From positions 1 to 63,364 of the IMG/VR virus record IMGVR_UViG_3300033978_000202: a stretch of 63,364 nt of DNA. One strand, 5' to 3'. Source of the stretch: a virus (taxonomy: Duplodnaviria > Caudoviricetes). The position numbers were made by a program, and so were the translations under genes. The notes under the pieces were generated by a model that worked only from the letters and a program-made list of their open reading frames with translations, did no database searches and had not been told where the DNA came from. This document shows, in pieces, positions 1 through 58,556 of the stretch (positions are counted from its first letter, which is position 1; every line of letters begins with the position of its first letter).

Positions 1-230
1 ATATACCGGTTTTGCGCAGATGGACCCGATCCGAAAACGACTTTGTTTTGAAGGGGTGGGGGTCTGAAATGGTCGGGCTCTTGCGGATTTTTTGCCTTTT
101 TCCCTCCTGCTCCTGCGCCCTGCTCCTGCTCCCTGTCTTGCGTCCGCTCCTCCTCCCCTCCGGTCCTCCGGTTACCGGTCACCGGCTGCCGGTCCTCCTC
201 CGGTTGCGCCCCTCCTCCCCTCCGCCCTGT
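1..230. repeat. Left copy of direct terminal repeat (or assembly overlap of a circular contig)
   Basis: 1-230 matches 63129-63364 except for one fewer CTGCTC hexamer; strongly C/T-skewed. Confidence 0.95.
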
Positions 231-244
231 GTCTTCAAAGACAC
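229..244 (+). repeat. 16-bp quasi-palindrome GTGTCTTCAAAGACAC, copy 1 of 8
   Basis: Exact motif; 7-bp inverted arms around CA. Confidence 0.9.
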
Positions 245-399
245 TAAAAAGAATTAAGAGAAGACGAGAGGAGCGAGGCTACCTCCCCTCCCCTGTCTGA
301 ATGTGCAAACAATTGACAGGGATTGAACACAGGTTAAACATCTGAAAAACAGAACGTGGAAAACGTGTGAAAAATAATTTTGAAAAAAAGTAAATAAAA

Positions 400-430
400 T
401 TTGGAATGAACGAGAATTGAACTATATTTG
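400..430 (+). promoter_or_regulatory. Bacteroidota primary-sigma promoter (early P1)
   Basis: TTTG(400-403)-N19-TATATTTG(423-430), 20 nt upstream of ATG 450. Confidence 0.8.
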
Positions 431-449
431 ATAAAATTTTATACACACT

Positions 450-1037
450 ATGAGCAATCTACTACGAATCGAGGCTGACTTTCTCCGCAGGTCGGAGGTC
501 GCTTCAGCCCTGCGCTTGCAGGAGGTGCGCACGATACAGCGCACCATCACCAACGCAAAGAAGAAAAAATTTGAGCAATCTCTCGCCCTGTCTCAGCACG
601 TAAGCGCAGCGTTCACGTGGTTCAAGTCTGACGAGGGTCAGGCAAAGTTCAGGGAGGAGGGCATCTCGTGGACGGCTGAAGACTTTGGGCTCAAGGTCTT
701 CGGATGGCAAAAGTCATTTTTTTACAAGATGGTCAAGGTCGCTGCTGTACCTGCTGAGGTAGTCGAGCGCTACAGCGCACAGGCTGACGAGAGTGGCGAA
801 GATGCTCAGCGCTCAGTCGAGGAGCTCCTCAGTTTTGCAAGGGCTGCGGAAAGTGGCACAGATGGCGGTGGAGAAGATGCTCAGCCACGTGCTGAGGTAG
901 TGCTCAGCCTGTCGTTCAATCATCCTGACGGAAAGGTCACCCTGAAAATTGATGATGCAGGGCAGGTGAAAATCAAAGGGGCTGAGAGTCTCGAGCAGGT
1001 GCGCAACGTATTAAACCAATTTCTAAACCAATTCTAA
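450..1037 (+). CDS. Early hypothetical protein, possible HTH DNA-binding protein (195 aa)
   Basis: First ORF after P1; segment AEDFGLKVFGWQKSFFYKMVKVA is HTH-like; leader ATACACACT-ATG shared with next gene. Confidence 0.6.
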   Translation: MSNLLRIEADFLRRSEVASALRLQEVRTIQRTITNAKKKKFEQSLALSQHVSAAFTWFKSDEGQAKFREEGISWTAEDFGLKVFGWQKSFFYKMVKVAAVPAEVVERYSAQADESGEDAQRSVEELLSFARAAESGTDGGGEDAQPRAEVVLSLSFNHPDGKVTLKIDDAGQVKIKGAESLEQVRNVLNQFLNQF

Positions 1038-1049
1038 ACCATACACACT

Positions 1050-1931
1050 ATGCAAACAGGTATCATCTACAGAAACACAGGAGAGCGTTCACGTGGTCAG
1101 ATAGCGCACTATCACGGAAAGCCATCACCCCTGCATCACGGCAAGACTCCGCACAGGGCTGACATCGCAGGGCTCAAGAAAGCCGAACAGCGCAACGTGC
1201 TGCATTTTGACGGCAGCGAGTACAGCAGCAGGTTCACCATCGGCTTCGAGATTGAGAAAAACAGCCTACACAGGGCAGCGGTGAAAGAGTATCCGCTCCT
1301 GTGCGGTTTCGAGCGTGACGGCTCGTGCGGTTACGAGGCGGTGACCCACATTTTGCCCCTCCTCCCTGCAGGTCAGTGGCGCAACAAGGTCTTCGACCTG
1401 TTCGTACAGGCTGAGAAGATTATTGATGACAGGTACAGCCCCTCAGACAAAAAATGTGGCGGTCACATCACAGTGGCTGTGCAAGGGCTGACAGGTGACG
1501 AGCTCAGGGAGAAAATCCGCAAGAACTGCGGTATCATCCTCGCCCTGTTCCGTAAGCGGCTCGATAACAGCTACTGCAATCACAACAGGAGGCTGCAGGG
1601 TAACAATGAGAGCAGCCACGCAGGTGGGTGGCATCACAAGTATCAGACAGCCCTCGTAAAGGGCAACACGCTTGAGTTTCGCCTCCCCTCACGTGTCGAG
1701 AGTGTCAAGCAAATGATTCGCAGGTACGAGCTGTTTTACGAGGTGGTGAACTTTTCAATCAACAGCCCGAGCGGTAGCCACGATGCACTGCTCAAGCGCA
1801 TCGACCCCATCATCCTGTCAATGTACAACGGAGACAGGGCTAAGGCTGACGAGGTGCTGCGCCTATCAAAGCATTTCCGCAAGTACATCATCACAGGGGA
1901 GAGACATCAGGACATCATCCCCTTTGTCTGA
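1050..1931 (+). CDS. Putative amidoligase (COOH-NH2 ligase, glutamine synthetase fold)
   Basis: Motifs TIGFEIE, DGSCGYE, CGGHITV, TLEFR. Confidence 0.75.
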   Translation: MQTGIIYRNTGERSRGQIAHYHGKPSPLHHGKTPHRADIAGLKKAEQRNVLHFDGSEYSSRFTIGFEIEKNSLHRAAVKEYPLLCGFERDGSCGYEAVTHILPLLPAGQWRNKVFDLFVQAEKIIDDRYSPSDKKCGGHITVAVQGLTGDELREKIRKNCGIILALFRKRLDNSYCNHNRRLQGNNESSHAGGWHHKYQTALVKGNTLEFRLPSRVESVKQMIRRYELFYEVVNFSINSPSGSHDALLKRIDPIILSMYNGDRAKADEVLRLSKHFRKYIITGERHQDIIPFV

Positions 1932-1944
1932 GGGGAGAGGGGCG

Positions 1945-1960
1945 GTGTCTTCAAAGACAC
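1945..1960 (+). repeat. 16-bp quasi-palindrome, copy 2
   Basis: Exact GTGTCTTCAAAGACAC, intergenic, 6 nt before hammerhead 1. Confidence 0.9.
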
Positions 1961-1966
1961 TGCTCC

Positions 1967-2019
1967 TGCTGTCTCAGCGTGTGTGCGCTGACTGACGAGC
2001 TCCAAAGAGCGAAACAGCA
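1967..2019 (+). ncRNA. Type III hammerhead ribozyme (predicted cleavage after C1973)
   Basis: Stem III TGCTGT/ACAGCA; GUC site; stem I TCAGCG/CGCTGA with loop TGTGTG; core CTGACGA 1992-1998; stem II GCTC-CAAA-GAGC; GAAA 2011-2014. Confidence 0.93.
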
Positions 2020-2040
2020 AACCATAAAAATCTAAACACA

Positions 2041-2274
2041 ATGACAAAGCAAACCATCCTCACCATCATCCTTGCCATCATCCCATCTTATCTGTCGCTG
2101 TTCTGTTCAGCGCAGGGGGCAACCATCCTGCTGTGCGCAACCACAATGATCGGGATTATCATCACAGGTGCGCTCAGTGACGAGCACAAACTGACGGACA
2201 AACTTCGCTTAGCGTGGATACTGCACTTGCTTAGTGTGTGCGGTGCGGTAGCCTTTCACAATATCGCAGGTTAA
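2041..2274 (+). CDS. Small hydrophobic membrane protein (77 aa) between two hammerheads
   Basis: 2-3 hydrophobic segments; A-rich leader like neighbouring genes; TAA stop lies in stem I of hammerhead 2. Confidence 0.7.
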   Translation: MTKQTILTIILAIIPSYLSLFCSAQGATILLCATTMIGIIITGALSDEHKLTDKLRLAWILHLLSVCGAVAFHNIAG

Positions 2275-2329
2275 CTGACGAGCTGTGAATCAGCGAAACG
2301 GGAGCTCGCTCCCGTCTTAACCAAATTGT
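2258..2329 (+). ncRNA. Type I hammerhead ribozyme (predicted cleavage after C2316)
   Basis: Stem I GGTTAA/TTAACC, extended by ACAAT/ATTGT past an internal loop; core CTGACGA 2275-2281; stem II GCTG-TGAAT-CAGC; GAAA; stem III ACGGGAG-CTCG-CTCCCGT; GUC site. Confidence 0.93.
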
Positions 2330-2336
2330 AAGCACT

Positions 2337-2882
2337 ATGCGCAAAATCACAGAGCAAATCGTGCGCTCTTTCCTGAGAGGAGAGAATCGCACCATCGGCA
2401 ACAGCCGGAGCGAGAACGGGTCGCTGTTCCTGTTCGACAATCGTATCGCTGAGTACAGAGGCAGCGAGTTATGGATAACCAACGCAGGGTGGACAAGCAA
2501 TACCACAAAGGAGCGGCTCAACGCCCTTCCCGGGGTTCGCATCCATCAGCGCAGAGGCGAGTGGTATCTGAACGACATTGCGTGGGATGGTGGATGGGTT
2601 CACGTGGGGTCGTACACAGGCAGCGTGGATGAGGAGGTGGAATTTGATATGACAAGCAGGTGGATGGACGCAGGGTACAGCAGACCAAATTATGCGGTGT
2701 TCCATACCCATAACGAAGCGGAGCTGAGCCAAATCGAGTTCATCCTGAACGAGGCAGGGATACCAAATCGCAGACACGAGACAGACACAGATGGTCGGTG
2801 GCTGCCCAACCACTTCATCGTGGTGCTGCCTCAAGATATTGACAATTCAGTCGCATTAATCACTAAAAATCTATACCAATGA
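2337..2882 (+). CDS. Phage hypothetical protein (181 aa)
   Basis: Long ORF in early operon; GWTSNTTKERLNAL resembles a common phage early-protein motif. Confidence 0.75.
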   Translation: MRKITEQIVRSFLRGENRTIGNSRSENGSLFLFDNRIAEYRGSELWITNAGWTSNTTKERLNALPGVRIHQRRGEWYLNDIAWDGGWVHVGSYTGSVDEEVEFDMTSRWMDAGYSRPNYAVFHTHNEAELSQIEFILNEAGIPNRRHETDTDGRWLPNHFIVVLPQDIDNSVALITKNLYQ

Positions 2883-3256
2883 TTAGAATCATCCGAGAGG
2901 CACGTATTGAGCATTGCACTGAGTACTCTCTCAACTTCGACACAGACAGAAACGGAGGCTATGCCTTCGACTGCAATCACAAAGGCGAGGTGTTTGATAT
3001 ATCACCCGAGGGTCAGCGCAACTATGAGCGCTGCCTGAGCGGTGAGGTCAAGACTATTCGCCCCCCATACATCAGAGAGCGCAACTACACAAAGCATACC
3101 TATGCGGTAGGTGAGTGCTACTGCGGTGCGCCTGTAGAGCTACAGCCCGACAGCGAAGGGCTGTGCTATTGTCACTGCGGACAGGGCTATAACACAGCAG
3201 GACAGAGCATACGCCCACGCTCAGAGTGGGAGGAGAGATATGAGGATGACTATTAA
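2879..3256 (+). CDS. Hypothetical Cys-rich, probably Zn-binding protein
   Basis: CYCG...CHCG pairs; ATGA overlap with upstream ORF. Confidence 0.7.
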   Translation: MIRIIREARIEHCTEYSLNFDTDRNGGYAFDCNHKGEVFDISPEGQRNYERCLSGEVKTIRPPYIRERNYTKHTYAVGECYCGAPVELQPDSEGLCYCHCGQGYNTAGQSIRPRSEWEERYEDDY

Positions 3257-3275
3257 TAAACCAAACCAAAGCAAT

Positions 3276-3434
3276 ATGGAGCGTGAGTTTTTATACAAAG
3301 TTTTCTATGGTAAGGTGCTCGTCAAAACTATAGTCGCCCACACAAGGTGGGAGGCAATTGAGTTAGTCTATAGCAGACTGATTGGCGAGTATCCTCACCT
3401 CATTCGGAGTCAGTTTAAGGCAAAAAGAATTTGA
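3276..3434 (+). CDS. Small hypothetical protein
   Basis: Start moved to MEREF after an A-rich leader. Confidence 0.55.
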   Translation: MEREFLYKVFYGKVLVKTIVAHTRWEAIELVYSRLIGEYPHLIRSQFKAKRI

Positions 3435-3460
3435 TATGTTCAGAAATTGTCGTATCTTTG
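3430..3460 (+). promoter_or_regulatory. Bacteroidota primary-sigma promoter (early P2)
   Basis: TTTG(3430-3433)-N19-TATCTTTG(3453-3460). Confidence 0.8.
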
Positions 3461-3488
3461 TCTATCTTTAGTTCATTAATCGGGTTCT

Positions 3489-3504
3489 GTGTCTTCAAAG
3501 ACAC
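3489..3504 (+). repeat. 16-bp quasi-palindrome, copy 3
   Basis: Exact motif in the leader between P2 and ATG 3525. Confidence 0.9.
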
Positions 3505-3524
3505 TGCCCACAAACCTAAACACT

Positions 3525-4625
3525 ATGTGCGTAATCATTATCAAGCAACAGGGTCAGCGCCTACCCAAAGAGGTCGCAAAGACATCAGGCAGGGTCAATC
3601 CTCACGGACTCGGGGTCATTTGGATGGACACGTTTGAGATAACTTATCACAAGTCGAAAGACTACAAGGTGCTCGACACAGAGCGCCCTTTCATTGCCCA
3701 CTTCAGGTACGCCACAGTGGGTGCAATCGGCATCGAGAACACGCACCCATTCCCCTGCGGTGCAAACAAAAATGAGTGGCTGATGATGAACGGCACAATC
3801 TATGGTAAGGGCAACAAGACTGAGTGTGACACGAAGGTGCTCGCTCGGGAGCTCGGCAACAAGCCACGCCACACGTGGAAGAAAGAGCTCGAGCAATACC
3901 CCTGCAGGTTCGTATCAGTCAACGTGCGTAATCGCAGCTACCAAATCTATAACAAAGAGCTGTGGGTTCAGAGGGATGGTATATGGTACAGCAAAGCCAA
4001 CGTGCTCGAGGAGCATCTCGTGGCTGTCTATGGGACGCTCAAGAAGGGTCACGGCAACTACTATCATCACCTGACTGAGAGCAAGTTCATCGGCAAGGGT
4101 GTAACCAAAGACAAGTATCCGCTCATCGTAGAGGGGCTGCCATATTTAATCGAGGAGAAGGGCAAGGGCTACAATGTAGAGGTCGAGGTGTTCAAGGTTG
4201 ACGATGACACGTTCAAAGACCTTGATGCGCTTGAGGGGCATCCAAATTGGTATCAGCGTAAGCAGATACCTGTCAAGCTAAAGGATGGCAAGGTTCTCAC
4301 CTGTTGGGTGTACTTCAATCCGACCAAGACAAGCAAAGGTCGCAAGATGCACAAGTCGTACACAGGTCAGAGCTACCGGCAAGAGCCTGCGAAATCGTGG
4401 CAGCCTGCGTTCACATTTTGGGAGCCACAGCGCACAATTGACGAGCCGATAGTTGACGAGCTGCAGCTACCTGACGACCAAGAGTTCACCGTAGCTGAGG
4501 AGTGCCCTGTCTGTATCAATTGTTTCAACGACCTTGAGCACGACTTCTATGGCAACTACTACTGCAAAGCCTGTGGTGAGTGGTTCAGTGAGAATGAAAT
4601 CATTAAATTCGGATGCGCAAACTAA
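3525..4625 (+). CDS. Class II glutamine amidotransferase fused to gamma-glutamylcyclotransferase-like domain and C-terminal Zn ribbon
   Basis: Start moved to Met-Cys (MCVII, Ntn nucleophile); NPHGLG, HFRYAT, NTHPF, MNG; VYGTLKKG and LDALEG (GGCT); CxxC motifs. Confidence 0.85.
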   Translation: MCVIIIKQQGQRLPKEVAKTSGRVNPHGLGVIWMDTFEITYHKSKDYKVLDTERPFIAHFRYATVGAIGIENTHPFPCGANKNEWLMMNGTIYGKGNKTECDTKVLARELGNKPRHTWKKELEQYPCRFVSVNVRNRSYQIYNKELWVQRDGIWYSKANVLEEHLVAVYGTLKKGHGNYYHHLTESKFIGKGVTKDKYPLIVEGLPYLIEEKGKGYNVEVEVFKVDDDTFKDLDALEGHPNWYQRKQIPVKLKDGKVLTCWVYFNPTKTSKGRKMHKSYTGQSYRQEPAKSWQPAFTFWEPQRTIDEPIVDELQLPDDQEFTVAEECPVCINCFNDLEHDFYGNYYCKACGEWFSENEIIKFGCAN

Positions 4626-4630
4626 ATACT

Positions 4631-4822
4631 ATGGCACACATAATAATCCAAGAACAAGAAAACAGAATGGTGAGAATCGACATCGAAGGAGAAGAGAAAG
4701 TACTTGCGTCTATCATAGCTTCGGCTATAATGAAAGACCCACACTTCGGTATCCTCGTGCTGTCGGCACTTGCTGTAATCGCTGAAGAGCAAACTAAATT
4801 CCCTGACATAAACCCAAATTAA
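4631..4822 (+). CDS. Small hypothetical protein
   Basis: Tightly packed ORF; AAATACT-ATG leader. Confidence 0.55.
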   Translation: MAHIIIQEQENRMVRIDIEGEEKVLASIIASAIMKDPHFGILVLSALAVIAEEQTKFPDINPN

Positions 4823-4827
4823 AAGCT

Positions 4828-5028
4828 ATGACACAGCCAATGGACGAACAAGAAAGACTGATGCTAATTCAGCATCTTATTGACAGACTTCTTTACCTTG
4901 AGGAAGAAAAGCGAAAGGAGTTCTTATCTTATCTCGATGCACTATACTGCGTGTATCCTATACCAAGAGAAATCAAATATGGTAAGGACGCTTTCATCGG
5001 TGCTGATAATTGTGACGAAAATTTTTAA
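4828..5028 (+). CDS. Small hypothetical protein
   Basis: Tightly packed ORF. Confidence 0.55.
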   Translation: MTQPMDEQERLMLIQHLIDRLLYLEEEKRKEFLSYLDALYCVYPIPREIKYGKDAFIGADNCDENF

Positions 5029-5031
5029 GCT

Positions 5032-5406
5032 ATGGAAAGACAATTACTTGAAGACATCTTTGTTACTGCCCTCGAAGGGGGCAGTAACTATTGGTATCAC
5101 ATCACCGCTGAGACCAATCAGAAAATCAGAAAGGCTGTGCCACGTAGTGAAGACCCTTACTTAGCAACAGCTATGCTCACCGCAATTCTTGATCACGGAG
5201 TGAGCGTAGAGATACACGATGCTGAGAATCCCGACGAGGTTCTCGGGGTGCTGAGCTACGAGAGAATCAAAGAGCAGCTCGAAGACATCGACAGACACCT
5301 TGACTACAGATGGGCGCTTGAGGCGCACCAAGATGAGGTCGGAGATGCAGAGAGCGCAGACATCGTATTCCAATACCTTGTAATGGGAGACGTATGGTTC
5401 TCGTAA
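5032..5406 (+). CDS. Acidic phage hypothetical protein (124 aa)
   Basis: ALEGGSNYW and DAESADIVFQ segments; operon packing. Confidence 0.7.
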   Translation: MERQLLEDIFVTALEGGSNYWYHITAETNQKIRKAVPRSEDPYLATAMLTAILDHGVSVEIHDAENPDEVLGVLSYERIKEQLEDIDRHLDYRWALEAHQDEVGDAESADIVFQYLVMGDVWFS

Positions 5407-5552
5407 CAGCCAAGTGGATACGCTGCATAGCGTGCAGACGTATGTTCACACAGACAATCTACAAGAGAAAGAAAAGTAAACCTGAGTGTCCACATTGTAA
5501 AAAGATTAATGATGATAGTTCAAACCATACACGAAATCCTAAATCCGTTTGA
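5394..5552 (+). CDS. Small Zn-ribbon protein (52 aa, below ORF-track cutoff)
   Basis: Manual translation MVLVTAKWIRCIACRRMFTQTIYKRKKSKPECPHCKK...; fills the apparent gap. Confidence 0.6.
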   Translation: MVLVTAKWIRCIACRRMFTQTIYKRKKSKPECPHCKKINDDSSNHTRNPKSV

Positions 5553-5739
5553 CGTGGAGACACCGCTCGGTACGGGCACAGCTCTGTTTCTGATAGCAGG
5601 TTCTATTCATTCCAATCCTCAGTTCATCGTACGACTTTACAATAGTGGAGCTGTACGGACTATTGACCAAACCGAAATCACTATCTACGGTAATCCAATG
5701 GACGGGCGTGGATGGGATATTAAATCAACCAATATATGA
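5509..5739 (+). CDS. Small hypothetical protein
   Basis: ORF in operon. Confidence 0.6.
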   Translation: MMIVQTIHEILNPFDVETPLGTGTALFLIAGSIHSNPQFIVRLYNSGAVRTIDQTEITIYGNPMDGRGWDIKSTNI

Positions 5740-5879
5740 AACAGAGAATCAAACTACTCGGGGAGCTTCTTTACTTCTTCTTTATCGCAACACCGGTATT
5801 CCTGCTGACCATAACAGCAATATACGTGGGGTTCTTTTTCTACGATACCTATAACCTGATAAAAAAAATTAGGAAATAG
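5736..5879 (+). CDS. Small single-pass membrane protein (47 aa, not in ORF track)
   Basis: Manual translation MKQRIKLLGELLYFFFIATPVFLLTITAIYVGFFFY...; ATGA overlap. Confidence 0.5.
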   Translation: MKQRIKLLGELLYFFFIATPVFLLTITAIYVGFFFYDTYNLIKKIRK

Positions 5880-5923
5880 AAAAGTTTTATACTAATTTTG
5901 TACCAAATCTAATCAAATTAACA

Positions 5924-6151
5924 ATGAAAAAAGAAACATTTATCAACAGCGGTCGCATCACAGACCTCAAGACATTCCTCAATTTAAGACCCAATGAAGC
6001 CCTGCAATTTGACTGCACAGATGTTGTGCTGTACGAGGATGGGCACTACATTCAGGTACTCAAGACCGGTCACTTCTTCTATGACGGTTTTGCTGACAAG
6101 AAATTGGATAATGTAGAAGAATTTATGTGGAAAAAAATTGACATTAATTAA
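5924..6151 (+). CDS. Small hypothetical protein
   Basis: Preceded by TAATTTTG (5893-5900), a possible -7 element. Confidence 0.6.
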   Translation: MKKETFINSGRITDLKTFLNLRPNEALQFDCTDVVLYEDGHYIQVLKTGHFFYDGFADKKLDNVEEFMWKKIDIN

Positions 6152-6189
6152 ACAAATTAACTTATCTTAGCAGACCTAAATCAAATCAA

Positions 6190-6492
6190 ATGAAAAGTGA
6201 CATCTTCTATCAGTACGTGGAGAGAATCACAGAGCTGTTCAGAATACAAAAAGAAGAGCTGTTCTCCAAATCAAAACGCAGAGACCTTGTCGATGCGAGA
6301 TACTTGCTTTACTACCTATGCTACAAACGCCCGATGAGCCTGAGCTATATCCAAAAGTATATGAGCGAGAACGGCTACTTCATCCGGCACTCTTCAGTTA
6401 TCTACGGTATCAACACCGTAATCGAAAGAGTGAAAGAGGACAGCGACTATATGCAAGTCGTTAAGGACATCGAGAAGGCTGTATTCATTTAA
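6190..6492 (+). CDS. Stand-alone DnaA C-terminal (domain IV)-like HTH protein
   Basis: SKSKRRDLVDARYLLYYL...SLSYI...RHSSVIYG. Confidence 0.75.
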   Translation: MKSDIFYQYVERITELFRIQKEELFSKSKRRDLVDARYLLYYLCYKRPMSLSYIQKYMSENGYFIRHSSVIYGINTVIERVKEDSDYMQVVKDIEKAVFI

Positions 6493-6513
6493 CCAACACA
6501 CATACCTAAAACT

Positions 6514-7856: not shown

Positions 7857-7867
7857 ACCCTACAATT

Positions 7868-8164: not shown

Positions 8165-8172
8165 ACCAAACT

Positions 8173-52700: not shown

Positions 52701-55700
52701 TGATATGTCTTCACATACTAATCCAAGTGTAGATGCACTATTAGGGTCATTGTTAGCCTGAGCTAATGCAACAGCAAGTCTTTGCCCCTGCGCACCTGCA
52801 ACCCTTACAGCTTGATAAGCTGTTCTTGATAGATTACCTCCTGTGCTATTACGGACTCTTGCCACAATAGTCTCTCCAATTGGAAGATTGTAGGTGTTGC
52901 CCTTAAGAGAAAGACGAATAGTTCCTTCGGTATTATCCCACCACATAACTCCTTCAGCAGAAGGAATATTACTGCTCGATGGATTGAATCTAACAAAGTC
53001 AGTAATCAATCCATACGTTCCGAGGTTAACATCTTGCGTTGCGCCTGTGTACGGAACATATCCCGTAAGTACAGAACCGTAGTCAGGAATGTTCAATACC
53101 CCCGTTAAGGTGGTATATGTTGCAGGTCCTGATGTTCCTATAGTAGTAAGACTGATAGCTGCACGAGCTCTCGAATCTAAGTAGTATAAATTAGTGCCCT
53201 CAGTAACAAGGGTCGTTGAATAATCACCTGACTGAGCTATAACAGCCCCTGTTCTTCCGAACACACTTGTCACCGGGGCGGTATCGTAATCACTCCAAGT
53301 AGCAGTGATGGTTCCACCATCCTGCTGATTAAGTGTCAATGTCTTTGTTTGTACCCCTGTAACTGCAGCGGATACAATCATATTGTTGTAAGCAGAGTCC
53401 CAAGTCAACTGACTTGCATCTGTCGGAATAGAATAACCTGAAGTCAAACTAAATACACCTGTTAGAGTAGTATAAGTTAAACCTGTTGCAGATGAACTTA
53501 TAGCAGCCCTTGCTCTTGAATCTAAATAATAAAGATTGGTCCCTTCTGTTACAAGAGTTGTACTATAGTCTCCGCTTTGAGCAATAATAGCCCCTGTTCT
53601 ACCGAATACGGAAGTAACAGGTGCTGTATCAAAGTCGCTCCAAGATGCAGTAATAGTACCGCCATCCTGCTGAGTAAGTGTTAAAGTCTTTGTTTGTACA
53701 CCGGTTACGGCAGCAGATACAATTGAATCATTATATGCCGTAGTCCAAGTAGCCTGAGTTGCGTTTGTAGGTAACGAATAGCCTGCAGCAAATGTCAAAG
53801 CAAGCGTGCCTGTTGTAGTTATGGGATTGCCTCCTATTGCAAAACCTGCAGGCACACTCATATCTACTGAAGTTACTGTACCTACTGACCAAGTACGGTT
53901 AGCGGACAAATCGTAGGAGGTTCCGTTGATAGTTAATTCGCGTGTTATAGGAACGCCATCAATATCATCGAGCACCTCACTACCTGTCCTGTACTCAATA
54001 ACCCCATTATTTGAAACGATGAATTTATCTGTGTCGACTGTTGCATTACCAATTGCATCTACAAATAAATCTCCATAAACCTGAAGCTTTATGCCATTAC
54101 TTACAGTACTTAACCCTATTACAGTTGATCCATCAGAGAATATTCTTGATACTTGTACACCTGATATATATTGAGCTACCTCACCATCACTATAGTCGTG
54201 AACAGTAGACCTTGGAGACCCAAAGTTGTTCATCTGTATGGTGTAGCCATAAGGAGTAAGCCCCGTATTTATGAAAGCTACAGTAGCTCCTGAGTTTGAA
54301 TTGTAGTTTACAGATAGTACATCTCCTTGGTACGAGATAGGACTGTCAATAAGAGTGGTAAGCCCACTCCACATTGGTATATTATACGCTGTACCTGTGC
54401 CTGTAACAGGGTTAGTAAGCGCATCTTGCTTGTCATTAAAGGTATTCCAATCGGTACTCGACAAATAGCCATCTGTTGAGACCCCTGATTGTGTAATACC
54501 AATGACATCATTTGAATAAGTTATAGGAGCAGTTGCGCTAAGGTCTGCAAGCTTGGTATTAAACTCGTTCCAATCAGCAGCACTTAGGTAACCATCAGAA
54601 GTTGGACCTGATTGTGTGATACCGATCGTACCTGAAGTGGTAATTGTGCCTCCTGTAAGTGGTCCTGTGGTAGCAATGCTTGTAATTGTACCTACATTCC
54701 ACGCTCTATTCGCAGAAAGGTCATAGGCAATTCCATTAATCGTCAGTGTTGTGCTATCCTCTACCGCATCTGTAATACCATACCCTGATAAAGTAGTAGG
54801 AGTATTGATAATCTTAGACCAATCAAGTGATTCAATCCACGAAGGATTAGAATAAATCTGATCTGTACGCACATCACCTACTGTCCAAGACCTATCTGCA
54901 CTCAAATCATACCCAACACCGTTAATTGTAAGAGTTCTTGTAGCCGGAGGCGCACCAACATCGCTATAAGTAAGCACAACCGCACCTGTATAGCCATTAA
55001 CACTTACAACTGCGTCAGTATTGTCAACCTTACTCCACTCAGCACCATCAAATATTGCCCAATCACCAAGGTTCCACGAGGTGATTCCGTTCAAATTGGT
55101 ATTACCCGGTACATTTACCACATAGTATTCGCCCTTTACACCAACAGAACTCTGCAAAAAGGGTGTGTTAGTAGCTGCGTTCCACGTACCCTTGTACATT
55201 ACGCCACCAACTAACGCATTTATTTGGTTTTGAACCTTACCAAAGGCAGTAACGATACTATCAGTTGACACTACAGTACCACCTGTGATGTTCAAACCGT
55301 TCAAAACCTTAGCAATAACAGCGTCATTGGTAAGTGTAACGGTAGCATTGCCCGGTCCCGAAGCAGTTGCCTCGCCTGAAAGCTGTGTTATGTAGTCTCC
55401 CTGTGATTGATACACAGGAATATTGAGCACTTTTGCTGAATAGGTAGCCGGACCACCGGTCCCATCAGTAGTAAATGAGTTTATTGTAGGCAAATCCCAA
55501 GACCTATCAGCAGATAGATCATAGGTTACAGTGTTGATAGTGATGGTTCGTGCAAATGGAACGTAAGATGTACCATCTAAAGAGCCATCAGCCTTCACAA
55601 ATTCTGATGCAAGACCGCCCGGAACAATAAATGCAGCAGCCTCAATGCTATGTGTACCTAAGTTTACATTACCCGTAGCGCCAACATAAGGCACATAGAA

Positions 55701-55832
55701 CTGCCCGATGACGTTACCAATCTCACTTAAGGTAAAATTCTTGGTATTATTAAAATTCTCTACGTCTGTACCGATCAATAAATCGTTCAGCGTAGGAGTA
55801 GATATTATCGGGTATGTACTTATCCGTGCCAT
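49791..55832 (-). CDS. Long repetitive fibre protein (2013 aa)
   Basis: Repeats RTLTINGTxYDLSAxRxWSVGTVTS, GYLSSTDW.TFNNKQ, VTSVFGRTGA, YxGTWNA. Confidence 0.85.
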   Translation of the reverse strand: MARISTYPIISTPTLNDLLIGTDVENFNNTKNFTLSEIGNVIGQFYVPYVGATGNVNLGTHSIEAAAFIVPGGLASEFVKADGSLDGTSYVPFARTITINTVTYDLSADRSWDLPTINSFTTDGTGGPATYSAKVLNIPVYQSQGDYITQLSGEATASGPGNATVTLTNDAVIAKVLNGLNITGGTVVSTDSIVTAFGKVQNQINALVGGVMYKGTWNAATNTPFLQSSVGVKGEYYVVNVPGNTNLNGITSWNLGDWAIFDGAEWSKVDNTDAVVSVNGYTGAVVLTYSDVGAPPATRTLTINGVGYDLSADRSWTVGDVRTDQIYSNPSWIESLDWSKIINTPTTLSGYGITDAVEDSTTLTINGIAYDLSANRAWNVGTITSIATTGPLTGGTITTSGTIGITQSGPTSDGYLSAADWNEFNTKLADLSATAPITYSNDVIGITQSGVSTDGYLSSTDWNTFNDKQDALTNPVTGTGTAYNIPMWSGLTTLIDSPISYQGDVLSVNYNSNSGATVAFINTGLTPYGYTIQMNNFGSPRSTVHDYSDGEVAQYISGVQVSRIFSDGSTVIGLSTVSNGIKLQVYGDLFVDAIGNATVDTDKFIVSNNGVIEYRTGSEVLDDIDGVPITRELTINGTSYDLSANRTWSVGTVTSVDMSVPAGFAIGGNPITTTGTLALTFAAGYSLPTNATQATWTTAYNDSIVSAAVTGVQTKTLTLTQQDGGTITASWSDFDTAPVTSVFGRTGAIIAQSGDYSTTLVTEGTNLYYLDSRARAAISSSATGLTYTTLTGVFSLTSGYSIPTDASQLTWDSAYNNMIVSAAVTGVQTKTLTLNQQDGGTITATWSDYDTAPVTSVFGRTGAVIAQSGDYSTTLVTEGTNLYYLDSRARAAISLTTIGTSGPATYTTLTGVLNIPDYGSVLTGYVPYTGATQDVNLGTYGLITDFVRFNPSSSNIPSAEGVMWWDNTEGTIRLSLKGNTYNLPIGETIVARVRNSTGGNLSRTAYQAVRVAGAQGQRLAVALAQANNDPNSASTLGLVCEDISTNQEGFIVNIGQIINVNTTGNLQGETWSDGDVLYLSPTTAGAITNIKPTAPQHTVIVGYVEYAHANNGKIYVKIDNGYELEELHDVAPTPYINNGVLYRDTTTNLWKSATIATLLGYTPANQATTLTINGTTYDLSANRTWSVGTVTSITAGAGLDGGTITVSGTISHADTSSQASVDNSGGIVIQDVTLDTFGHVTGLASIDLDGRYVPLTRTLNGLALSSNQTFATGTTGTDFNIVSAGTVHTFNIPDASGSARGFLSTGAQTIGGAKTFTSSITTPSVYLTAMGAGSGALYYNTGESRLTLANYNVGGKVMIEVNGGNYTASFNSDLSIQFIGYTTNGILRTSSSNGTLVVDTTAYTPQSRTLTINGTAYDLSADRTWSVGTVTSVNMSVPTGFAIGGNPITTNGTLALTFASGYSLPTNAKQANWDTAYDNRITSLTTTGTSGAATLTSNVLNIPIYQAQGSYITSLTGEATASGPGAASVTLSNSAVIGKVLTGLTVTGTTIAATDSILTAFGKLQGQINSLVGGLQYQGTWNANTNSPTITSGVGTEGYFYIVNVAGNTTIDGVSGWQVGDWIVFDGTAWQKVDNTDSVTSVNGFTGAVTLTTTNISEGTNLYYLDSRARAAISLTTTGNSGAATYSNLTGVLNIPQYSIAGLGGVPDTRLLTINGTAYDLSANRTWSVGTVTSIATSGPITGGTITGSGTIGITQATISTNGYLSSTDWNTFNNKQNAITLTTTGNNGSATLVGATLNIPSYTLSGLGGVPDSRTLTINGTSYDLSVNRTWSVGTVTSITFTGPLTGGTITGSGTVGITQASGSASGYLSSTDWTTFNNKQNALTLTTSGTSGAATLVGATLNIPVYQSVLTNPVTGTGTAGYLSKFTGTSAIGNSLLYDNGSALAMGTTSINASALFQLDSTTKGFLPPRMTSAQRTAISTPAEGLVVFQTDAVIGLYIYANGTWRSLTMV

Positions 55833-56804: not shown

Positions 56805-57091
56805 AACATTTTTAATAATTCAATAATAAACTTAAGCGCTCCGAGACCGAGTAAAGTAACAAGAGCATAGAAATATGTCTTATACTTTTTGATGTCAGCC
56901 TTGAGTGCGTAAAACTCTTTCTTTACTTGTCTAAAGTCGCCAATTAGTCCGCTCGCATCTTTGTCAATTGGATTGCCGGTAAGAAGCGTGTGCATATCTT
57001 TTACCAATTGCTTTACCTCAGCCACGTCATTCTTGAGCGTGTCTAATTCTGCCGCCATAATATCTAATCTATGGTTTTCTTGGATATTCAT
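56801..57091 (-). CDS. Coiled-coil protein with C-terminal TM helix (lysis-associated)
   Basis: Heptad pattern and hydrophobic C-terminus. Confidence 0.6.
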   Translation of the reverse strand: MNIQENHRLDIMAAELDTLKNDVAEVKQLVKDMHTLLTGNPIDKDASGLIGDFRQVKKEFYALKADIKKYKTYFYALVTLLGLGALKFIIELLKML

Positions 57092-57113
57092 TTAACTTGT
57101 ATTGTGATTGCGA

Positions 57114-57371
57114 TTACCATAATGCAATAATATTATTTGCGTTTGTGGTTGAGGCAAACACACGAATTACCTGTACAGGCAAGAAGGTTCCGTTTGGTAC
57201 GTTTGTGAAAGTGATGTCATCACCTCCGGCAGTAAGTACACGAAGTGTGCCACCTGTGCCAACATACAATACGCATCCCTCAACCTCACCGTTACCGGGA
57301 TTTGGAATGTCTACTGTGTCACTCTTAGTAACCACAGAAGCACGAGCAGGTTGGAGTTTTTGATATGCCAT
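57114..57371 (-). CDS. Head spike base-like protein (RcGTA Rcc01079-like)
   Basis: Start moved to MAYQK; LYVGTGGTLRV...TFTNVPNGTFLPVQVIRV. Confidence 0.65.
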   Translation of the reverse strand: MAYQKLQPARASVVTKSDTVDIPNPGNGEVEGCVLYVGTGGTLRVLTAGGDDITFTNVPNGTFLPVQVIRVFASTTNANNIIALW

Positions 57372-57372
57372 T

Positions 57373-57561
57373 TTAATTTGTTTTTTGTTGTTGTTCGTTG
57401 TTATTGTTCTGATAAGGGAATACACGATTAAGTGTATCACGTCTTTTTGCGCAGCCACAGTCTTTACCTGTAGCCTTTGCAACAGTCTCTACTACCTTCT
57501 TAATGCCGGTAGCAGTTGTGATCTTCTCGATAGTGTCCCCAAGTCCTTTACTTTTTTCCAT
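57373..57561 (-). CDS. Small hypothetical protein
   Basis: GLGDTIEKIT...DCGCAKRR. Confidence 0.65.
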   Translation of the reverse strand: MEKSKGLGDTIEKITTATGIKKVVETVAKATGKDCGCAKRRDTLNRVFPYQNNNNEQQQKTN

Positions 57562-57644
57562 ATTCTAAAATTTGCCCCAACCCGATTTCTCCATACACTT
57601 CAACCGATACTCTTCAATCAGCCTGAGAAGTTCAATTATCTTTT

Positions 57645-57797
57645 TCATTTCTTTTTCTTACCGGCTACTGCCATCTGCTGAAACTTCTTTTTGCCGTATT
57701 TATTACGACCTATAGAAGCAACAATGGCATCAGCCCTTTTGGGACTGATGCCTTGCTTCTTCTGAATCTTATTTGACAGCGTACTAAACTTGCTCAT
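57645..57797 (-). CDS. Small basic protein (50 aa, not in ORF track)
   Basis: Manual translation MSKFSTLSNKIQKKQG...GRNKYGKKKFQQMAVAGKKKK. Confidence 0.6.
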   Translation of the reverse strand: MSKFSTLSNKIQKKQGISPKRADAIVASIGRNKYGKKKFQQMAVAGKKKK

Positions 57798-58191
57798 CTT
57801 CCTCGGACGGTTTTTCAGGCTCTATGCCTTCAACCCATCCTGCGAGGAATTTGAAGTCTTCGATGCCTTCAGTTGAAAAAGTAAATTGATAAAAGTCAAA
57901 CGCTTCATCGAGTAGCTTCTTCATATCCTTCGCCATTGCCTTGATGCCATCCTTAGTGAATTTGTATTCACCTTTGTCATTCAATTCCAATACACCATTT
58001 GATGTAGTGAAAGCGTGGTCAAGACGAATGTCCTCTCTCTTTTCGTTGTAACTCTCAAAAAGAGGTTTGATTTTCTCAGCGATCTTTTTAAGCTTCGCTT
58101 CTGCTTTGCTACCTTTTTCAGCAGGAGTCATATTTAGTGCACGCACTAAGTCTAATAACTCCGCATTTGATTTGCTAACTTTTGTTGCCAT
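57784..58191 (-). CDS. Hypothetical protein
   Basis: Start moved to MATKV after AAATCAAATCAA leader; upstream TATATTTG (58213-58220). Confidence 0.65.
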   Translation of the reverse strand: MATKVSKSNAELLDLVRALNMTPAEKGSKAEAKLKKIAEKIKPLFESYNEKREDIRLDHAFTTSNGVLELNDKGEYKFTKDGIKAMAKDMKKLLDEAFDFYQFTFSTEGIEDFKFLAGWVEGIEPEKPSEEDEQV

Positions 58192-58220
58192 TTGATTTGA
58201 TTTTAATTTGAACAAATATA

Positions 58221-58556
58221 CTAAACTTTAGAAACTCTTTTACCCATTCCAACCCTGCTCTTCTCAGCTTTTTTTGCAGCAAGTTTGGAAGGTGATATTT
58301 CACTCTTTGTTTTCGGTGTCTTTGAAGACACTCGCTTGGTTGGTCGGCAGTATTCATTACCACCTCCTGCACCACAGGCTTTGCCTGTTCGGGTATCCAC
58401 CCACTTCTCGCTTTGCCATCTTTTCAAGCTCGTACCTGTCTCTGTCCTTCGGACAGTTCCGGATGCCTTCCTGCATTTTGCAATAGCTTGTGAAGCTCTT
58501 GCAGATGGAAAGACATCATACGATGCTTTGACTTTTCTATAACAAGCGTCTTTCAT
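58221..58556 (-). CDS. Basic Cys-containing protein; carries 16-bp motif copy 8 (58316-58331)
   Basis: DACYRKVK..FPSARAS, LKRWQSEKWVD, YCRP. Confidence 0.7.
   Translation of the reverse strand: MKDACYRKVKASYDVFPSARASQAIAKCRKASGTVRRTETGTSLKRWQSEKWVDTRTGKACGAGGGNEYCRPTKRVSSKTPKTKSEISPSKLAAKKAEKSRVGMGKRVSKV

Follow-up and report, generated by a model that had tools for sequence, protein, structure and literature searches.

A dispersed 16-base palindromic word in a 63-kb phage and its relatives, a candidate site for a dimeric DNA-binding protein

The self-complementary 16-base word GTGTCTTCAAAGACAC occurs in eight exact copies in a 63-kb phage, and it is a real signal that is read by some factor. 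The reader is most likely a phage-encoded, sequence-specific protein that recognises DNA; we infer its nature, its substrate and its action alike. The interpretation that we tentatively prefer, at somewhat less than even confidence, is that a dimeric phage protein binds the word on double-stranded DNA, the copies standing where a palindrome can be tolerated. The first-pass annotation had offered either a site for a dimeric protein or an RNA hairpin tag. The dispersed and palindromic nature of the word was confirmed, and both interpretations stay in the lead. Throughout, the window is the whole stretch of 63,364 nucleotides that was analysed (IMG/VR record IMGVR_UViG_3300033978_000202).

The word is a clade-wide element with uniform variants in each genome

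An exact motif scan of the window returned the eight copies of the first-pass annotation at the same places and on the same strands (Table 1), and none of 100 dinucleotide-preserving shuffles contained an exact word. The degenerate scan, in which the centre was left free and up to two mismatches were allowed, gave the same eight copies and zero near-copies, with a shuffle mean of 0.22.

Table 1. Positions of the word copies and of the neighbouring features in the window
Feature	Position	Strand	Context
Copy 1	229-244	+	~520-nt non-coding stretch, between a divergent - strand promoter-like site (~63085) and P1
P1, host-type promoter-like site	400-430	+	TTTG-N19-TATATTTG, 20 nt before ORF 450; regex scan
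ORF 450-1037	450-1037	+	First early gene, directly after P1; weak candidate binder
Copy 2	1945-1960	+	Tip of a 13-pair hairpin (1938-1967); fold -22.2 kcal/mol, z -5.85
Type III hammerhead ribozyme	1966-2020	+	Rfam RF00008, E 4.2e-7, 44.4 bits (gathering score 48.5, slightly above)
P2, host-type promoter-like site	3430-3460	+	TTTG-N19-TATCTTTG; regex scan
Leader element	3482-3509	+	Before gamma-glutamyl cyclotransferase/amidotransferase gene (ATG 3525); fold -13.4 kcal/mol
Copy 3	3489-3504	+	Inner helix of the leader element, downstream of P2
DnaA domain IV-like HTH protein, 100 aa	6190-6492	+	Pfam Bac_DnaA_C, E 7.3e-9; candidate binder
Copy 4	11943-11958	-	In SNF2-type helicase gene (10721-12247, +); gene strand GTGTCTTTGAAGACAC, read as SVFEDT
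Second DnaA domain IV-like protein, 178 aa	12421-12957	+	Pfam Bac_DnaA_C, E 3.5e-10; candidate binder
Copy 5	19478-19493	-	In 2752-aa virion-type gene (13794-22052, -); read as VSSKT
Terminator-like hairpin	34353-34374	-	After capsid-like gene (34397-35818), then T run; -22.1 kcal/mol
Copy 6	34356-34371	-	Tip of the capsid terminator-like hairpin
Copy 7	41454-41469	-	In terminase large subunit gene (39429-41666, -); TGT CTT CAA AGA CAC, read as CLQRH
Copy 8	58316-58331	-	In DUF5872 gene (58221-58556, -); read as VSSKT
Possible winged-helix regulator	59591-60094	+	Sole + strand gene in late block; PHROG 'transcriptional regulator', E 0.0037 only

Of the 119 IMG/VR stretches with the exact 16-mer, 115 belong to relatives of this phage, across which the sites show synteny; the word is a clade-wide element. 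MW202828.1, the closest named relative, carries GTGTCGTTAACGACAC 14 times, all within 11.4 kb of the early region, and six of its intergenic copies end 16-23 nt ahead of a start codon. This confinement is a misfit with the genome-wide, matS/parS/Noc-like organising role suggested earlier, and the suggestion of packaging or injection control found no support. In G004, a class D genome, GTGTACACATGTACAC occupies the early cluster and also the capsid terminator. Such symmetric variants are uniform within one genome and different among genomes, a pattern that, at the level of sequence, points to a co-evolving reader. The elemo phage is without the motif. In relatives, 142 distinct sites share these arms, and their centre was CA/TG in 116, TA in 23, CG in 2 and GA in 1, a pyrimidine-purine step in 141 of them; the two central bases, previously described as never varying, are thus invariant within the window and not in the relatives.

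Copies inside genes are conserved at the nucleotide level

Four copies lie in genes and are read in the differing ways that the first-pass annotation gave (Table 1). The terminase copy is the most informative about selection, which had been placed on the nucleic acid. Exactly the same word was found in 40 of 80 orthologues, always with identical codons; one further orthologue had a synonymous variant and the others encoded other peptides. The proposed check of synonymous sites gave a third-position conservation of 1.00 (100%) within the word versus 0.57 (57%) outside, and the exact copies stood in 36 distinct sequence backgrounds with flanks 64% identical. At the helicase gene, 12 of 21 orthologous sites were exact, and at the DUF5872 gene 6 of the 7 that could be mapped. 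The coding copies are substitutions and not insertions. In the terminase the word keeps its codons although it sits in a variable linker of the protein. As judged from these alignments, what is selected at the coding copies is the nucleic acid, not the protein, in agreement with the earlier claim.

The VSSKT reading in the 2752-aa gene was worked by hand from the coordinates, with a start on a codon boundary (22052-19493 = 2559 = 3 x 853). When this region was compared in five complete relatives, the copy of G002 mapped within the gene, G001, G003 and G005 had one or two copies lying 484-2191 nt away from the closest aligned segment of the homologue, and G004 had no copy at the homologue.

Three copies lie in RNA hairpins that also occur without the word

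The other non-coding contexts named earlier, beside a hammerhead, in the P2 leader and in the capsid terminator stem, were as described. What had been missed is that larger RNA hairpins, which persist without the word, have it at their tip. The hairpin of copy 2 starts 14 nt past the ORF 1050-1931 stop codon and closes immediately ahead of the type III hammerhead. The word itself ends 5 nt before the ribozyme, whose cleavage site in the Rfam alignment follows GUC at 1971-1973. This hairpin-then-hammerhead module recurs in relatives: 29 of 35 type III hammerheads were preceded by the word in a hairpin, with a gap of 0-6 nt (mostly 4-5), and six had a different hairpin in front. The exact TG-centred word was seen in none of the 29 linked copies, and a GTGA centre in two. 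In the leader, an outer helix (GGG/CCC) and an internal loop (UUCU/UG) enclose the inner helix formed by copy 3. In its alignment (A2), 97.3% of the cells were paired, 9/9 pairs had double-sided changes and 14 cells were G.U, which none of 500 shuffles equalled; in many relatives the helix has other sequences in place of the word. The capsid terminator retained its hairpin and T run in all 27 usable relatives. The exact word was present in 10 of them, and about 10 were without the word, several of these being near-variants. At this site the flanks add on average 5.6 pairs to the stem on the sense strand and 2.2 on the antisense strand, which places the G.U pairs on the RNA strand. No stem extension by flanks was observed at the coding copies. 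Since all three word-bearing hairpins also occur without the word, the RNA job of the hairpin is separable from the job of the word.

The main alternative, possible and yet doubtful, is an RNA function: in the transcript the word would form a 6-pair stem closed by a UYRA loop, to which an RNA-binding factor of phage or host origin would attach. The factor would mark or protect mRNA ends, defining 3' ends together with hammerheads and terminator and standing near 5' ends in leaders, or it would control translation or antitermination, like boxB/nut. The folds are in its favour (-5.6 kcal/mol for the bare word, with the extended forms in Table 1), as are the sense-strand stem extension at the capsid site, the leader covariation, the near-constant distance to hammerheads and the six copies ahead of start codons in MW202828.1. 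The sense strand also mostly carries the CA reading: when intergenic sites were counted by hand in five complete genomes of class A (the window, G001, G002, G003 and G005), ~20 were CA and 4 TG. According to PMC3088659, hammerheads flanking genes of phages are believed to cleave long transcripts down to mRNAs of gene length, which suits the same role.

However, the loop is the least conserved part of the word. Among one-sided changes on the sense strand, G.U was not favoured over A.C (9 vs 6), and 19 were other mismatches, including a recurrent A.G in mid-stem; the recurrent non-complementary variant GTATCTTTAAAGAGAC appeared five times in L152, L156 and L158. Many relatives have working hairpins that lack the word, and the coding copies, which have no extended stem, would be melted by ribosomes. 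Copy 1 and its orthologues lie outside any promoter-defined transcript found, and among the ORFs searched none showed a recognisable RNA-binding domain.

Other explanations of the palindrome

In the window, G001 and G002, the five dispersed copies (DUF5872, terminase, capsid terminator, giant gene and helicase) are co-oriented over ~46 kb and opposite to the early cluster, and the polarity switches between 3.5 and 11.9 kb, amid the replication genes, not at the 13.5-kb transcription switch. This arrangement would suit a strand-specific DNA hairpin or cruciform in replication or recombination, for instance as a signal that primes or loads the primase-helicase or as a junction resolvase target, and the phage encodes a primase-helicase, a Sak annealing protein, nucleases and a VRR-NUC/Hjc-like resolvase. 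We consider such a role unlikely. Orientation at the coding sites is forced by the protein, as TG in the terminase frame makes a stop codon and CA in the helicase changes E to K; MW202828.1 has no dispersed copies; and both orientations, 4 and 5, are mixed in one co-directional gene block of L026. Moreover, arms of 7 bp extrude poorly.

Still less probable is that nothing reads the word, which would then be either a palindromic repeat that spreads itself or is homogenised, as REP elements are, or a cassette duplicated with the hammerhead. Some intergenic copies do share longer flanks (e.g., ...taatca[word]acaaaacca...), as if cassettes had been duplicated, and the hammerhead-linked copies have a single orientation. 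Against this stand the coding copies, which arose by substitution and are exact in 36 dissimilar backgrounds, as well as the class D genome, with its own variant at an unrelated site. No transposase-like gene was found among the ORFs searched.

Bacterial regulators typically recognise a palindromic dyad split by a spacer, and a host transcription factor site borrowed by the phage, such as that of the Bacteroidota SOS repressor, might be proposed; we regard this as very improbable. The word differs from the Bacteroidota SOS motifs GGA-N5-TCC and CTAA-N5-TTAG given in PMC8565304, and close relatives of the phage carry different variants. Among the 120 genome_contigs matches listed, nine were phage relatives, the others were single matches in many phyla, and no host regulon for the word was seen. 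The multi-copy contigs among the matches listed, of 56 kb (Cytophagales bin) and 32 kb (Flavobacteriaceae bin), were both phage relatives.

An N4-like hairpin promoter for a virion RNA polymerase in the giant 2752-aa protein, the least probable of all, was rejected despite an N4-resembling layout (early block at one end and on one strand, late block on the other strand, giant virion gene), three copies in the first 3.5 kb and the 5-7 bp hairpins with a 3-nt loop that PMC4496689 describes for N4 early promoters: the conserved core of the protein (residues 1350-2350; 1001/2752 residues folded) is predicted to be all-alpha, with no PDB fold match at E <= 1e-3 (weak top rows were podovirus ejection proteins) and no phmmer match to PDB, its T7-like motif matches are not conserved in 23 homologues, DFDxD is absent from every large ORF, and host-type promoter-like sites precede the early genes.

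A possible double-stranded DNA site for a dimeric protein

Several observations count for the double-stranded DNA site. The arms appear constrained while the centre is apparently not read, as L160 carries GTGTCG-N4-CGACAC with four different centres and in L137 the inner six bases vary; proteins that read RNA hairpins usually read the loop. The one-sided changes described above, GTATCTTTAAAGAGAC included, seem to be without an RNA-strand signature. Half of the copies are genic, which would be in keeping with chromosomal protein-binding palindromes such as parS, where a genic location is common.

A further argument, again from sequence comparison, is the copy kept between divergent promoter-like sites in the window, G001, G002 and G003. 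Copy 1 is ~155 nt upstream of P1, and in these three relatives a copy occupies the same non-coding region upstream of a P1-like promoter, the distance to P1 being ~150-190 nt across the window and the relatives. P1 is kept in G002 and G003 and weaker in G001, and the -7-like box of P2 is kept in relatives; both promoter calls use what we take to be the Bacteroidota-type consensus. Copy 1 also stands at the end of a terminal overlap, in which 1-230 matches 63129-63364. This overlap probably stems from assembly rather than marking a biological end: its final 127 nt are duplicated exactly (104-230 = 63238-63364), and the record is classed in IMG/VR as linear and 100% complete. The 'repeat boundary' previously assigned to copy 1 would thus hold as a position and not as a biological repeat.

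The predicted dimer encoded directly after P1 would also fit a DNA site. For ORF 450-1037, AF2 gave a model (pLDDT 84) with a helical N-terminal part and a helix-turn-helix-like stretch at ~76-98. The predicted homodimer had an ipSAE of 0.69 versus 0.00 for the best control. Of 30 known homodimers 20 attained that mark, as did 1 of 23 monomers. The runs shared at least 89% of contacts at a pLDDT of at least 80. Its VIA fold matches to the DNA-binding domains of Spo0J (Z 5.4) and KorB (Z 5.1) were weak and in the noise range, with no Foldseek match at E <= 1e-3 and no Pfam match. Homologues were present in all 25 relatives with loci covering the region and in MW202828.1, and absent from the elemo phage. 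The possible winged-helix regulator has a homologue annotated 'repressor protein' in MW202828.1 and a 27% homologue in the motif-free elemo phage. The first-pass annotation had named these two proteins and the two DnaA domain IV proteins as candidate binders. A dimer is indeed predicted for the first, and Pfam confirmed the domain in both DnaA-like proteins; however, the HSS(I/V)IHGI helix of the 100-aa protein is identical in motif classes A, B and D, and its recognition-helix region showed no change with motif class. Covariation with motif class was not seen for any protein with a recognised specific DNA-binding fold.

Other points count against a DNA site. The word before 29/35 hammerheads at a near-fixed gap looks like an RNA module. 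CA lies mostly on the gene-sense strand, though a symmetric DNA dimer would be indifferent to orientation; this bias could come from descent by duplication of co-oriented cassettes. The copies ahead of start codons in MW202828.1 could indicate a role on mRNA, and a roadblock in the terminase or helicase gene would be without obvious use. The phage also looks virulent, with no integrase among the subset of ORFs annotated, and the known multi-operator silencers come from temperate phages and plasmids.

If the word is nevertheless a DNA site, each monomer of a symmetric dimer would read one GTGTCTT arm, and the central pyrimidine-purine step would be uncontacted and bendable. Copies of the word cluster in the early region, where they stand ahead of P1, within the P2 leader and between early cistrons, and a few more are scattered over the late block. 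A palindrome would be cheap to keep where the transcript needs a hairpin, as at the pre-hammerhead hairpin tip, the capsid terminator and the inner helix of the cyclotransferase leader, and where such places are absent the word would be written into variable protein linkers. The protein may act as a multi-site regulator of transcription of the phage by the host RNA polymerase; near P1 and P2 the word would be its operator, and between cistrons it would form a roadblock. Such a regulator would resemble the multi-operator systems of other phages and plasmids.

Distribution of the palindrome and layout of the genome

The first-pass annotation had counted eight exact copies of the 16-base palindrome GTGTCTTCAAAGACAC (hereafter, the word), and a whole-window exact scan confirmed them, three on the plus strand and five on the minus strand; none of 100 shuffled windows contained any exact match. 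When the central two bases were left free and up to two mismatches were allowed, the identical eight sites were returned and nothing further, indicating that there is no halo of imperfect copies. The word is thus a 7+2+7 palindrome of ~16 bp present in eight copies per replicon, four of which are intergenic and the remaining half within genes.

The record, a whole virus of 63,364 bases, is classified in IMG/VR as linear and 100% complete. Its two ends overlap, and the final 127 nt of that overlap are duplicated exactly, a pattern resembling what is left when a circle is assembled. The copy at 229 had been placed at a "repeat boundary", which is therefore probably no biological landmark. This copy and a purine-rich stretch come after a C/T-rich tract (~150 nt, ~70% G+C with CCTCC-type repeats, in a genome of ~42% G+C), all between divergent promoter-like sites. 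Relatives preserve this arrangement, not the sequence, and the C/T-rich end region could be an origin or packaging region.

The plus-strand block consists of early and replication genes, encoding an amidoligase-like protein, a gamma-glutamyl cyclotransferase/amidotransferase fusion, two DnaA domain IV proteins, a Sak annealing protein, nucleases, a primase-helicase, and an SNF2-type helicase. The minus-strand block carries GroEL/GroES-like genes, lysis, structural, terminase, portal, and capsid genes, and the gene of a 2752-aa protein. The amidoligase-like ORF was recognized through an Atlas lead only (PF12224 in 12% of a neighbouring cluster's members), and the fusion joins a class II glutamine amidotransferase-like part to the cyclotransferase (Pfam GGACT, E 1.5e-24); these two early genes look like a peptide-modification set. 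On the minus strand, five late-gene starts have a common ~40-nt upstream block (…TAnnTTTG…AAATCAAATCAAATGG; repeat family D8), which looks like a host-type -7 box with a common A-rich leader. The large genes of 1557 and 2013 aa contain internal repeats of ~70-290 nt with 60-80% identity (families D1-D5 and D9-D11), and probably encode fibre or adhesin-like proteins. A core predicted to be all-alpha is conserved in the 2752-aa protein; its homologues range from 1,600 to 3,800 aa, with variable N-terminal parts bearing differing Pfam domains (GNAT acetyltransferase, PF23802, PF18760, PF18838), and it looks like a polyvalent ejected protein. GroEL (Pfam Cpn60_TCP1, E 2.6e-55) is accompanied by an ORF whose homologue in MW202828.1, the closest named relative, is annotated as chaperonin 10, GroES; GroEL/GroES genes also occur in elemo phages, which are Flavobacterium phages.

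Positions of the copies of the word and of other features in the window
Feature	Position	Strand	Remark
Copy of the word	229	+
Copy of the word (copy 2)	1945	+	beside the hammerhead
Copy of the word (copy 3)	3489	+	in the cyclotransferase leader
Copy of the word	11943	-
Copy of the word	19478	-
Copy of the word	34356	-	in the capsid terminator
Copy of the word	41454	-
Copy of the word	58316	-
Overlapping ends	1-230 and 63129-63364
C/T-rich tract	within 90-300 and 63215-63364
Promoter-like site P1	400-430	+	host type
Promoter-like site P2	3430-3460	+	host type
Early and replication gene block	~450 to 13,540	+
Late gene block	63,070 back to 13,530	-
First early ORF	450-1037
Amidoligase-like ORF	1050-1931
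Type III hammerhead	1966-2020	+
Cyclotransferase leader element	3482-3509	+
Amidotransferase/cyclotransferase ORF	3525-4625
DnaA-like ORF	6190-6492
SSB-like ORF	7868-8164
Gene of 2752-aa protein	13794-22052	-
Gene of 1557-aa protein	45114-49787	-	internal repeats
Gene of 2013-aa protein	49791-55832	-	internal repeats
GroES-like ORF	60060-60317	-
GroEL homologue	60941-62539	-
Late upstream block	27338-27377	-	family D8
Late upstream block	34311-34350	-	family D8
Late upstream block	36945-36984	-	family D8
Late upstream block	58188-58227	-	family D8
Late upstream block	62536-62575	-	family D8

The word among related phages

The exact 16-mer was matched in at least 119 IMG/VR stretches, and among the matches listed, 115 of 119 encode relatives of this phage's proteins. 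The spread of the word is much broader than is visible from the window alone, and these matches mark it as a clade-wide element. The clade itself is large, with a terminase query matching at least 599 IMG/VR stretches. The word is syntenic in these phages: its placement across the 163 occurrences in the listed stretches is that of the window, namely in the terminase gene (42), directly after the capsid-like gene (33), in the DUF5872 gene (17), in the helicase gene (10), and in early intergenic spaces (~45). The five complete relatives (G001-G005) have 8-11 sites per genome in a conserved order.

A scan of bacterial chromosomes had also been proposed, and it revealed no host regulon, a reading that was rejected. 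The 185,579 species' genomes scanned gave at least 120 stretches with the exact 16-mer from many phyla; among those listed, only 9 of 120 are relatives, all of them phage contigs within bins, and the rest are single matches scattered across phyla. Binned relatives include a 56-kb contig (L254/L283) in a Cytophagales bin and a 32-kb contig (L306) in a Flavobacteriaceae bin, giving a weak hint of the host range. The window sequence was found in public lake-water and wastewater runs, and no cultured clade member appears to exist above 44% terminase identity. The four public runs compared with the window are contigs, probably of DNA, and gave no RNA evidence, as neither starts nor ends appear in them and the sites themselves yielded nothing of use. 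A literature search for the 16-mers as text gave no match.

MW202828.1, with a terminase 77% identical, has none of the window-type sites. Instead, it carries GTGTCGTTAACGACAC 14 times, all within 11.4 kb of its early region (43745-55154); 8-9 of the 14 copies are directly before early genes, and six intergenic copies have a spacing of 16-23 nt to a start codon. The elemo-type phages (44% terminase identity) contain neither the word nor any other dominant palindrome.

Variants of the word were surveyed in 30 relatives picked via the cyclotransferase gene, among which GTGTCTT-YR-AAGACAC was the commonest form. One relative (L160) has GTGTCG-N4-CGACAC with four different centres, and another (L137) has GTGTC-N6-GACAC with the inner six bases variable; GTGTACACATGTACAC is found in L153 and L155 (the latter being genome G004), and the imperfect GTATCTTTAAAGAGAC in L152, L156, and L158. 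Symmetry is common to the variants, which agree within each genome and differ from one genome to another. In G004, the variant termed class D is found in the early cluster and, in addition, tips the capsid terminator, an unrelated site, indicating that this site followed the genome's own class. The centre differs both within and between genomes, and in 141 of 142 distinct sites its two bases form a pyrimidine-purine step. Forms that agree within genomes and differ between them call for a reader whose specificity evolves with its sites. Alternatively, some homogenising process may keep the copies alike, though we saw no mechanism by which it would reach the coding sites.

Selection on the nucleic acid at coding sites

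The first-pass annotation had claimed that selection acts on the nucleic acid, and the coding copies were compared at synonymous positions. Eighty terminase orthologues were picked by protein similarity only, and the site was then mapped. Forty of the 80 had the exact word, with codons that were invariably ..G TGT CTT CAA AGA CAC (CLQRH), and a single one had a synonymous variant; the others had different peptides, such as CFSRS, VYKRS, and CIKRS, at what is a variable linker. In the 36 distinct motif-bearing terminase sequences, third codon positions were 100% conserved within the word (n=6) versus 57% outside it (n=30), and the mean identity of the flanking 93 nt was 64%. Given the peptide, the probability of the five codons is 0.024 under the codon usage of the window. 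The exact word was also present at the helicase site in 12 of 21 orthologues and at the DUF5872 site in 6 of 7. These results bear out the claim: the word is clearly selected, and selection acts on the nucleic acid.

RNA structures that carry the word

The word is linked to structures at RNA boundaries. The end of copy 2 lies 5 nt upstream of a putative type III hammerhead (RF00008, 44.4 bits against a gathering threshold of 48.5, E 4.2e-7, full model 1-54), and relatives carry the same module with compensating stem changes. A simple type III pattern applied to the window and 30 relatives found 35 hammerheads. A GTGT-N8-ACAC hairpin precedes 29 of the 35, with a gap of 0-6 nt (mostly 4-5), and a different strong hairpin abuts stem III in the remaining six. 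Since all 35 ribozymes have a hairpin in front, the hairpin belongs to the RNA module, with the word occupying it in 29 cases. After the predicted hammerhead cleavage, the upstream mRNA would end in this hairpin. Type III hammerheads lie between early genes, several per relative genome, for example at 2153-2207, 2462-2516, and 4087-4141 of L094. Each of these has a strong hairpin immediately before stem III, and like the one in the window they score just under the Rfam gathering threshold (44-45 bits against 48.5). In another relative (L080), tRNA-like 3' ends (GGTTCGAATCC…CCA; 9968-10040 and 11060-11103) adjoin early-region copies of the word; no tRNA genes were seen in the window.

A hairpin with a T run after it stands at the capsid terminator of every one of the 27 usable relatives. 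The exact word occupies it in 10 of the 27, a TA-centred form in 5, and near-variants in a few; by regex, ~10 lack the word and are a mix of near-variants and unrelated hairpins. The flanks of this site lengthen the stem on average by 5.6 pairs when read on the sense strand and by 2.2 on the other strand. Only the copy at 34356 has the form of an intrinsic terminator, a G+C-rich hairpin and then a T run; the other seven are without a T run.

The leader of the cyclotransferase gene was aligned in 25 relatives (alignment A2). It consists of an outer 3-pair helix, a conserved internal loop UUCU/UG, and an inner 6-pair helix, with 97.3% of cells paired and two-sided changes in 9 of 9 pairs. The covariation score was 0.612, a value that none of 500 shuffles reached, versus 0.309 in shuffles; slid controls were at most 59% paired, and the sense strand has 14 G.U cells. 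Copy 3 forms the inner helix in the window, whereas in many relatives the helix is another sequence, such as ATGCCTTCATAGGTAT or CCGCCTTGTTAGGTGG. The internal loop looks invariant, and a conserved CACAAA follows the element. Independently of the 16-mer, this leader may itself be a regulatory RNA. Coding copies and "bare" intergenic copies show no stem extension. Some copies are thus the tips of RNA structures, yet these structures do not need the word.

A possible site on DNA or tag on RNA

In phages and plasmids, palindromes that recur unchanged at dispersed positions mostly serve as DNA sites for proteins. We place first, at slightly less than an even chance, the reading that the word is a duplex-DNA site; that it is an RNA tag we regard as possible but less likely, and what remains falls to the other rivals. 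Several features speak for DNA. The arms are the most constrained part of the word and the loop or centre the least, with its bases held to the pyrimidine-purine step; one-sided changes on the sense strand are about as often A.C (6) as G.U (9), a non-complementary mid-arm variant recurs, and the carrier hairpins also occur without the word. Moreover, half of the copies are within genes, and in four genomes one copy lies ~150-190 nt upstream of P1, between divergent promoter-like sites. A tag is nevertheless favoured by the tight coupling of the word to the hammerhead, by the short spacing to start codons in MW202828.1, and by orientation: at intergenic sites the CA reading is favoured on the sense strand (~20 versus 4; manual count in five genomes), and none of the 29 hammerhead-linked copies is the exact TG-centred word. 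Orientation is a weak test, since palindromic arms form the same RNA stem either way and the protein dictates it at coding sites.

A more elaborate form of the tag, which we consider less likely than not, makes the word a phage-wide RNA punctuation mark. A hairpin-binding factor would recognize the GUGUCU/AGACAC stem where it tips boundary hairpins and, with type III hammerheads 4-5 nt downstream and the capsid terminator, would define and protect phage mRNA ends, in a host phylum without Shine-Dalgarno-led translation. Copies in the terminase, helicase, and virion genes would serve as internal stops for RNA decay. In a bolder form, one dimeric early protein would read the word on both DNA and RNA.

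Two further readings were rejected: a host SOS regulator, as the motifs of the Bacteroidota SOS system differ from the word, and an N4-like hairpin promoter, as the regex hits for motifs B and C of T7 type within the 2752-aa protein are unconserved in 23 homologues, its folded part (residues 1350-2350) is all-alpha without a polymerase match, and the large ORFs contain no DFDxD.

Candidate readers

Four ORFs are present wherever the word is and absent from the elemo phage: the first early ORF, the amidoligase-like ORF, the DnaA-like ORF, and an ORF with an acidic tail ending in DLPF, which we interpret as SSB-like. The first early ORF (450-1037) had been among the proposed binders, together with the DnaA domain IV and winged-helix proteins. 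Its predicted fold (pLDDT 84) weakly matches Spo0J (VIA Z 5.4) and the KorB DNA-binding domain (5.1), values in the noise range for helical proteins. Foldseek gave no match at E <= 1e-3, a Pfam scan of 22 members found no family, a profile comparison with PDB sequences found nothing meaningful, and a profile search of a large protein set retrieved close relatives only, none annotated; a weak Atlas lead was DUF3102 (rank 19, score 0.93). The protein is predicted to form a homodimer (ipSAE 0.69 versus 0.00 for the best control; runs share at least 89% of contacts, pLDDT at least 80). Of known homodimers, 20 of 30 attain this ipSAE mark, as does 1 of 23 monomers; these counts apply only approximately, as the prediction used our own alignment.

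None of the candidates checked has residues tracking the motif class. The DnaA-like protein has an identical helix in classes A, B, and D of the word, and the winged-helix-like protein has no pattern by class. In the first early protein, the columns separating class A, that of the window, from the others (35, 39, 83, 121) are scattered and outside the putative recognition helix.

Significance and comparison with known systems

A word kept exact through coding sequence offers a handle on the gene-control logic of Bacteroidota-type phages, as it marks sites to probe and a few early proteins to test. A DNA-binding dimer as its reader would mean that a phage which appears virulent carries a multi-operator system; as an RNA tag, the word would represent a new, ribozyme-coupled means of setting the ends of mRNAs. 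In both cases, the module of hairpin and hammerhead constitutes a natural insulator part, possibly useful in Bacteroidota genetics.

The parS (16-bp) and KorB (13-bp) sites are palindromes with a central pyrimidine-purine step, occur in ~10 copies per replicon, often within genes, and are read by a dimeric helix-turn-helix protein. The word is likewise palindromic, ~16 bp long, and multi-copy, and the first early protein is the predicted dimer with the weak Spo0J/KorB match. However, neither a ParB N-terminal domain nor ParA was seen in this phage, and unlike parS, the copies in MW202828.1 are not replicon-wide but all before or within early genes; this confinement fits regulation better than segregation. 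Streptomyces phage phiC31, a temperate phage, has highly conserved inverted repeats of ~17 bp in intergenic positions across its genome, bound by the phage repressor. They resemble the word as a conserved inverted repeat dispersed over a phage genome, and are not known to be linked to ribozymes or to coding copies. The boxB/nut element of lambdoid phages is a short, phage-specific hairpin of early leaders that co-evolves with a small phage protein. A genome has two such elements, whose loop is what the protein reads, whereas here the loop is least conserved and there are 8-14 copies, some in genes.

In N4, the promoters of the virion polymerase are short hairpins at three sites toward the early end of a podovirus genome; their stems are 5-7 bp long and contain conserved bases, and the 3-nt loop has conserved purines (PMC4496689). 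The word differs in having a 6-7 bp stem and a 4- or 2-nt centre of YR type; the N4 system also needs a virion T7-like polymerase, and the folded region 1350-2350 and motif and PDB searches gave no evidence for one here. Several hammerheads flank single phage genes or short blocks and are thought to cut long transcripts, according to the available text of PMC3088659, in which a fixed hairpin with a genome-wide word directly before stem III is not described for phage-gene hammerheads.

The best-documented multi-site case that we found is the stoperators of Cluster A mycobacteriophages (L5 gp71 type), more than 20 near-identical sites throughout the genome. They are located in promoter regions and short intergenic spaces of early and late operons and correlate with the direction of transcription, and one phage protein reads them and stops host RNA polymerase (PMC9283540). 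The word is similar in that its near-identical sites are numerous and occupy promoters as well as short gaps between genes in both early and late operons, four of the eight in the window being intergenic. Stoperators belong to temperate phages, and each is a 13-mer without symmetry to which a monomeric protein with a pair of DNA-binding domains binds (PMC9283540); here the site is a 16-bp palindrome, the phage looks virulent, half of the copies are intragenic, and several are RNA hairpin tips. No homologue of a stoperator-type two-domain repressor was recognized among the window proteins searched. In this company, the word is a dispersed recognition palindrome of a mobile replicon, a known kind in a new variant form.
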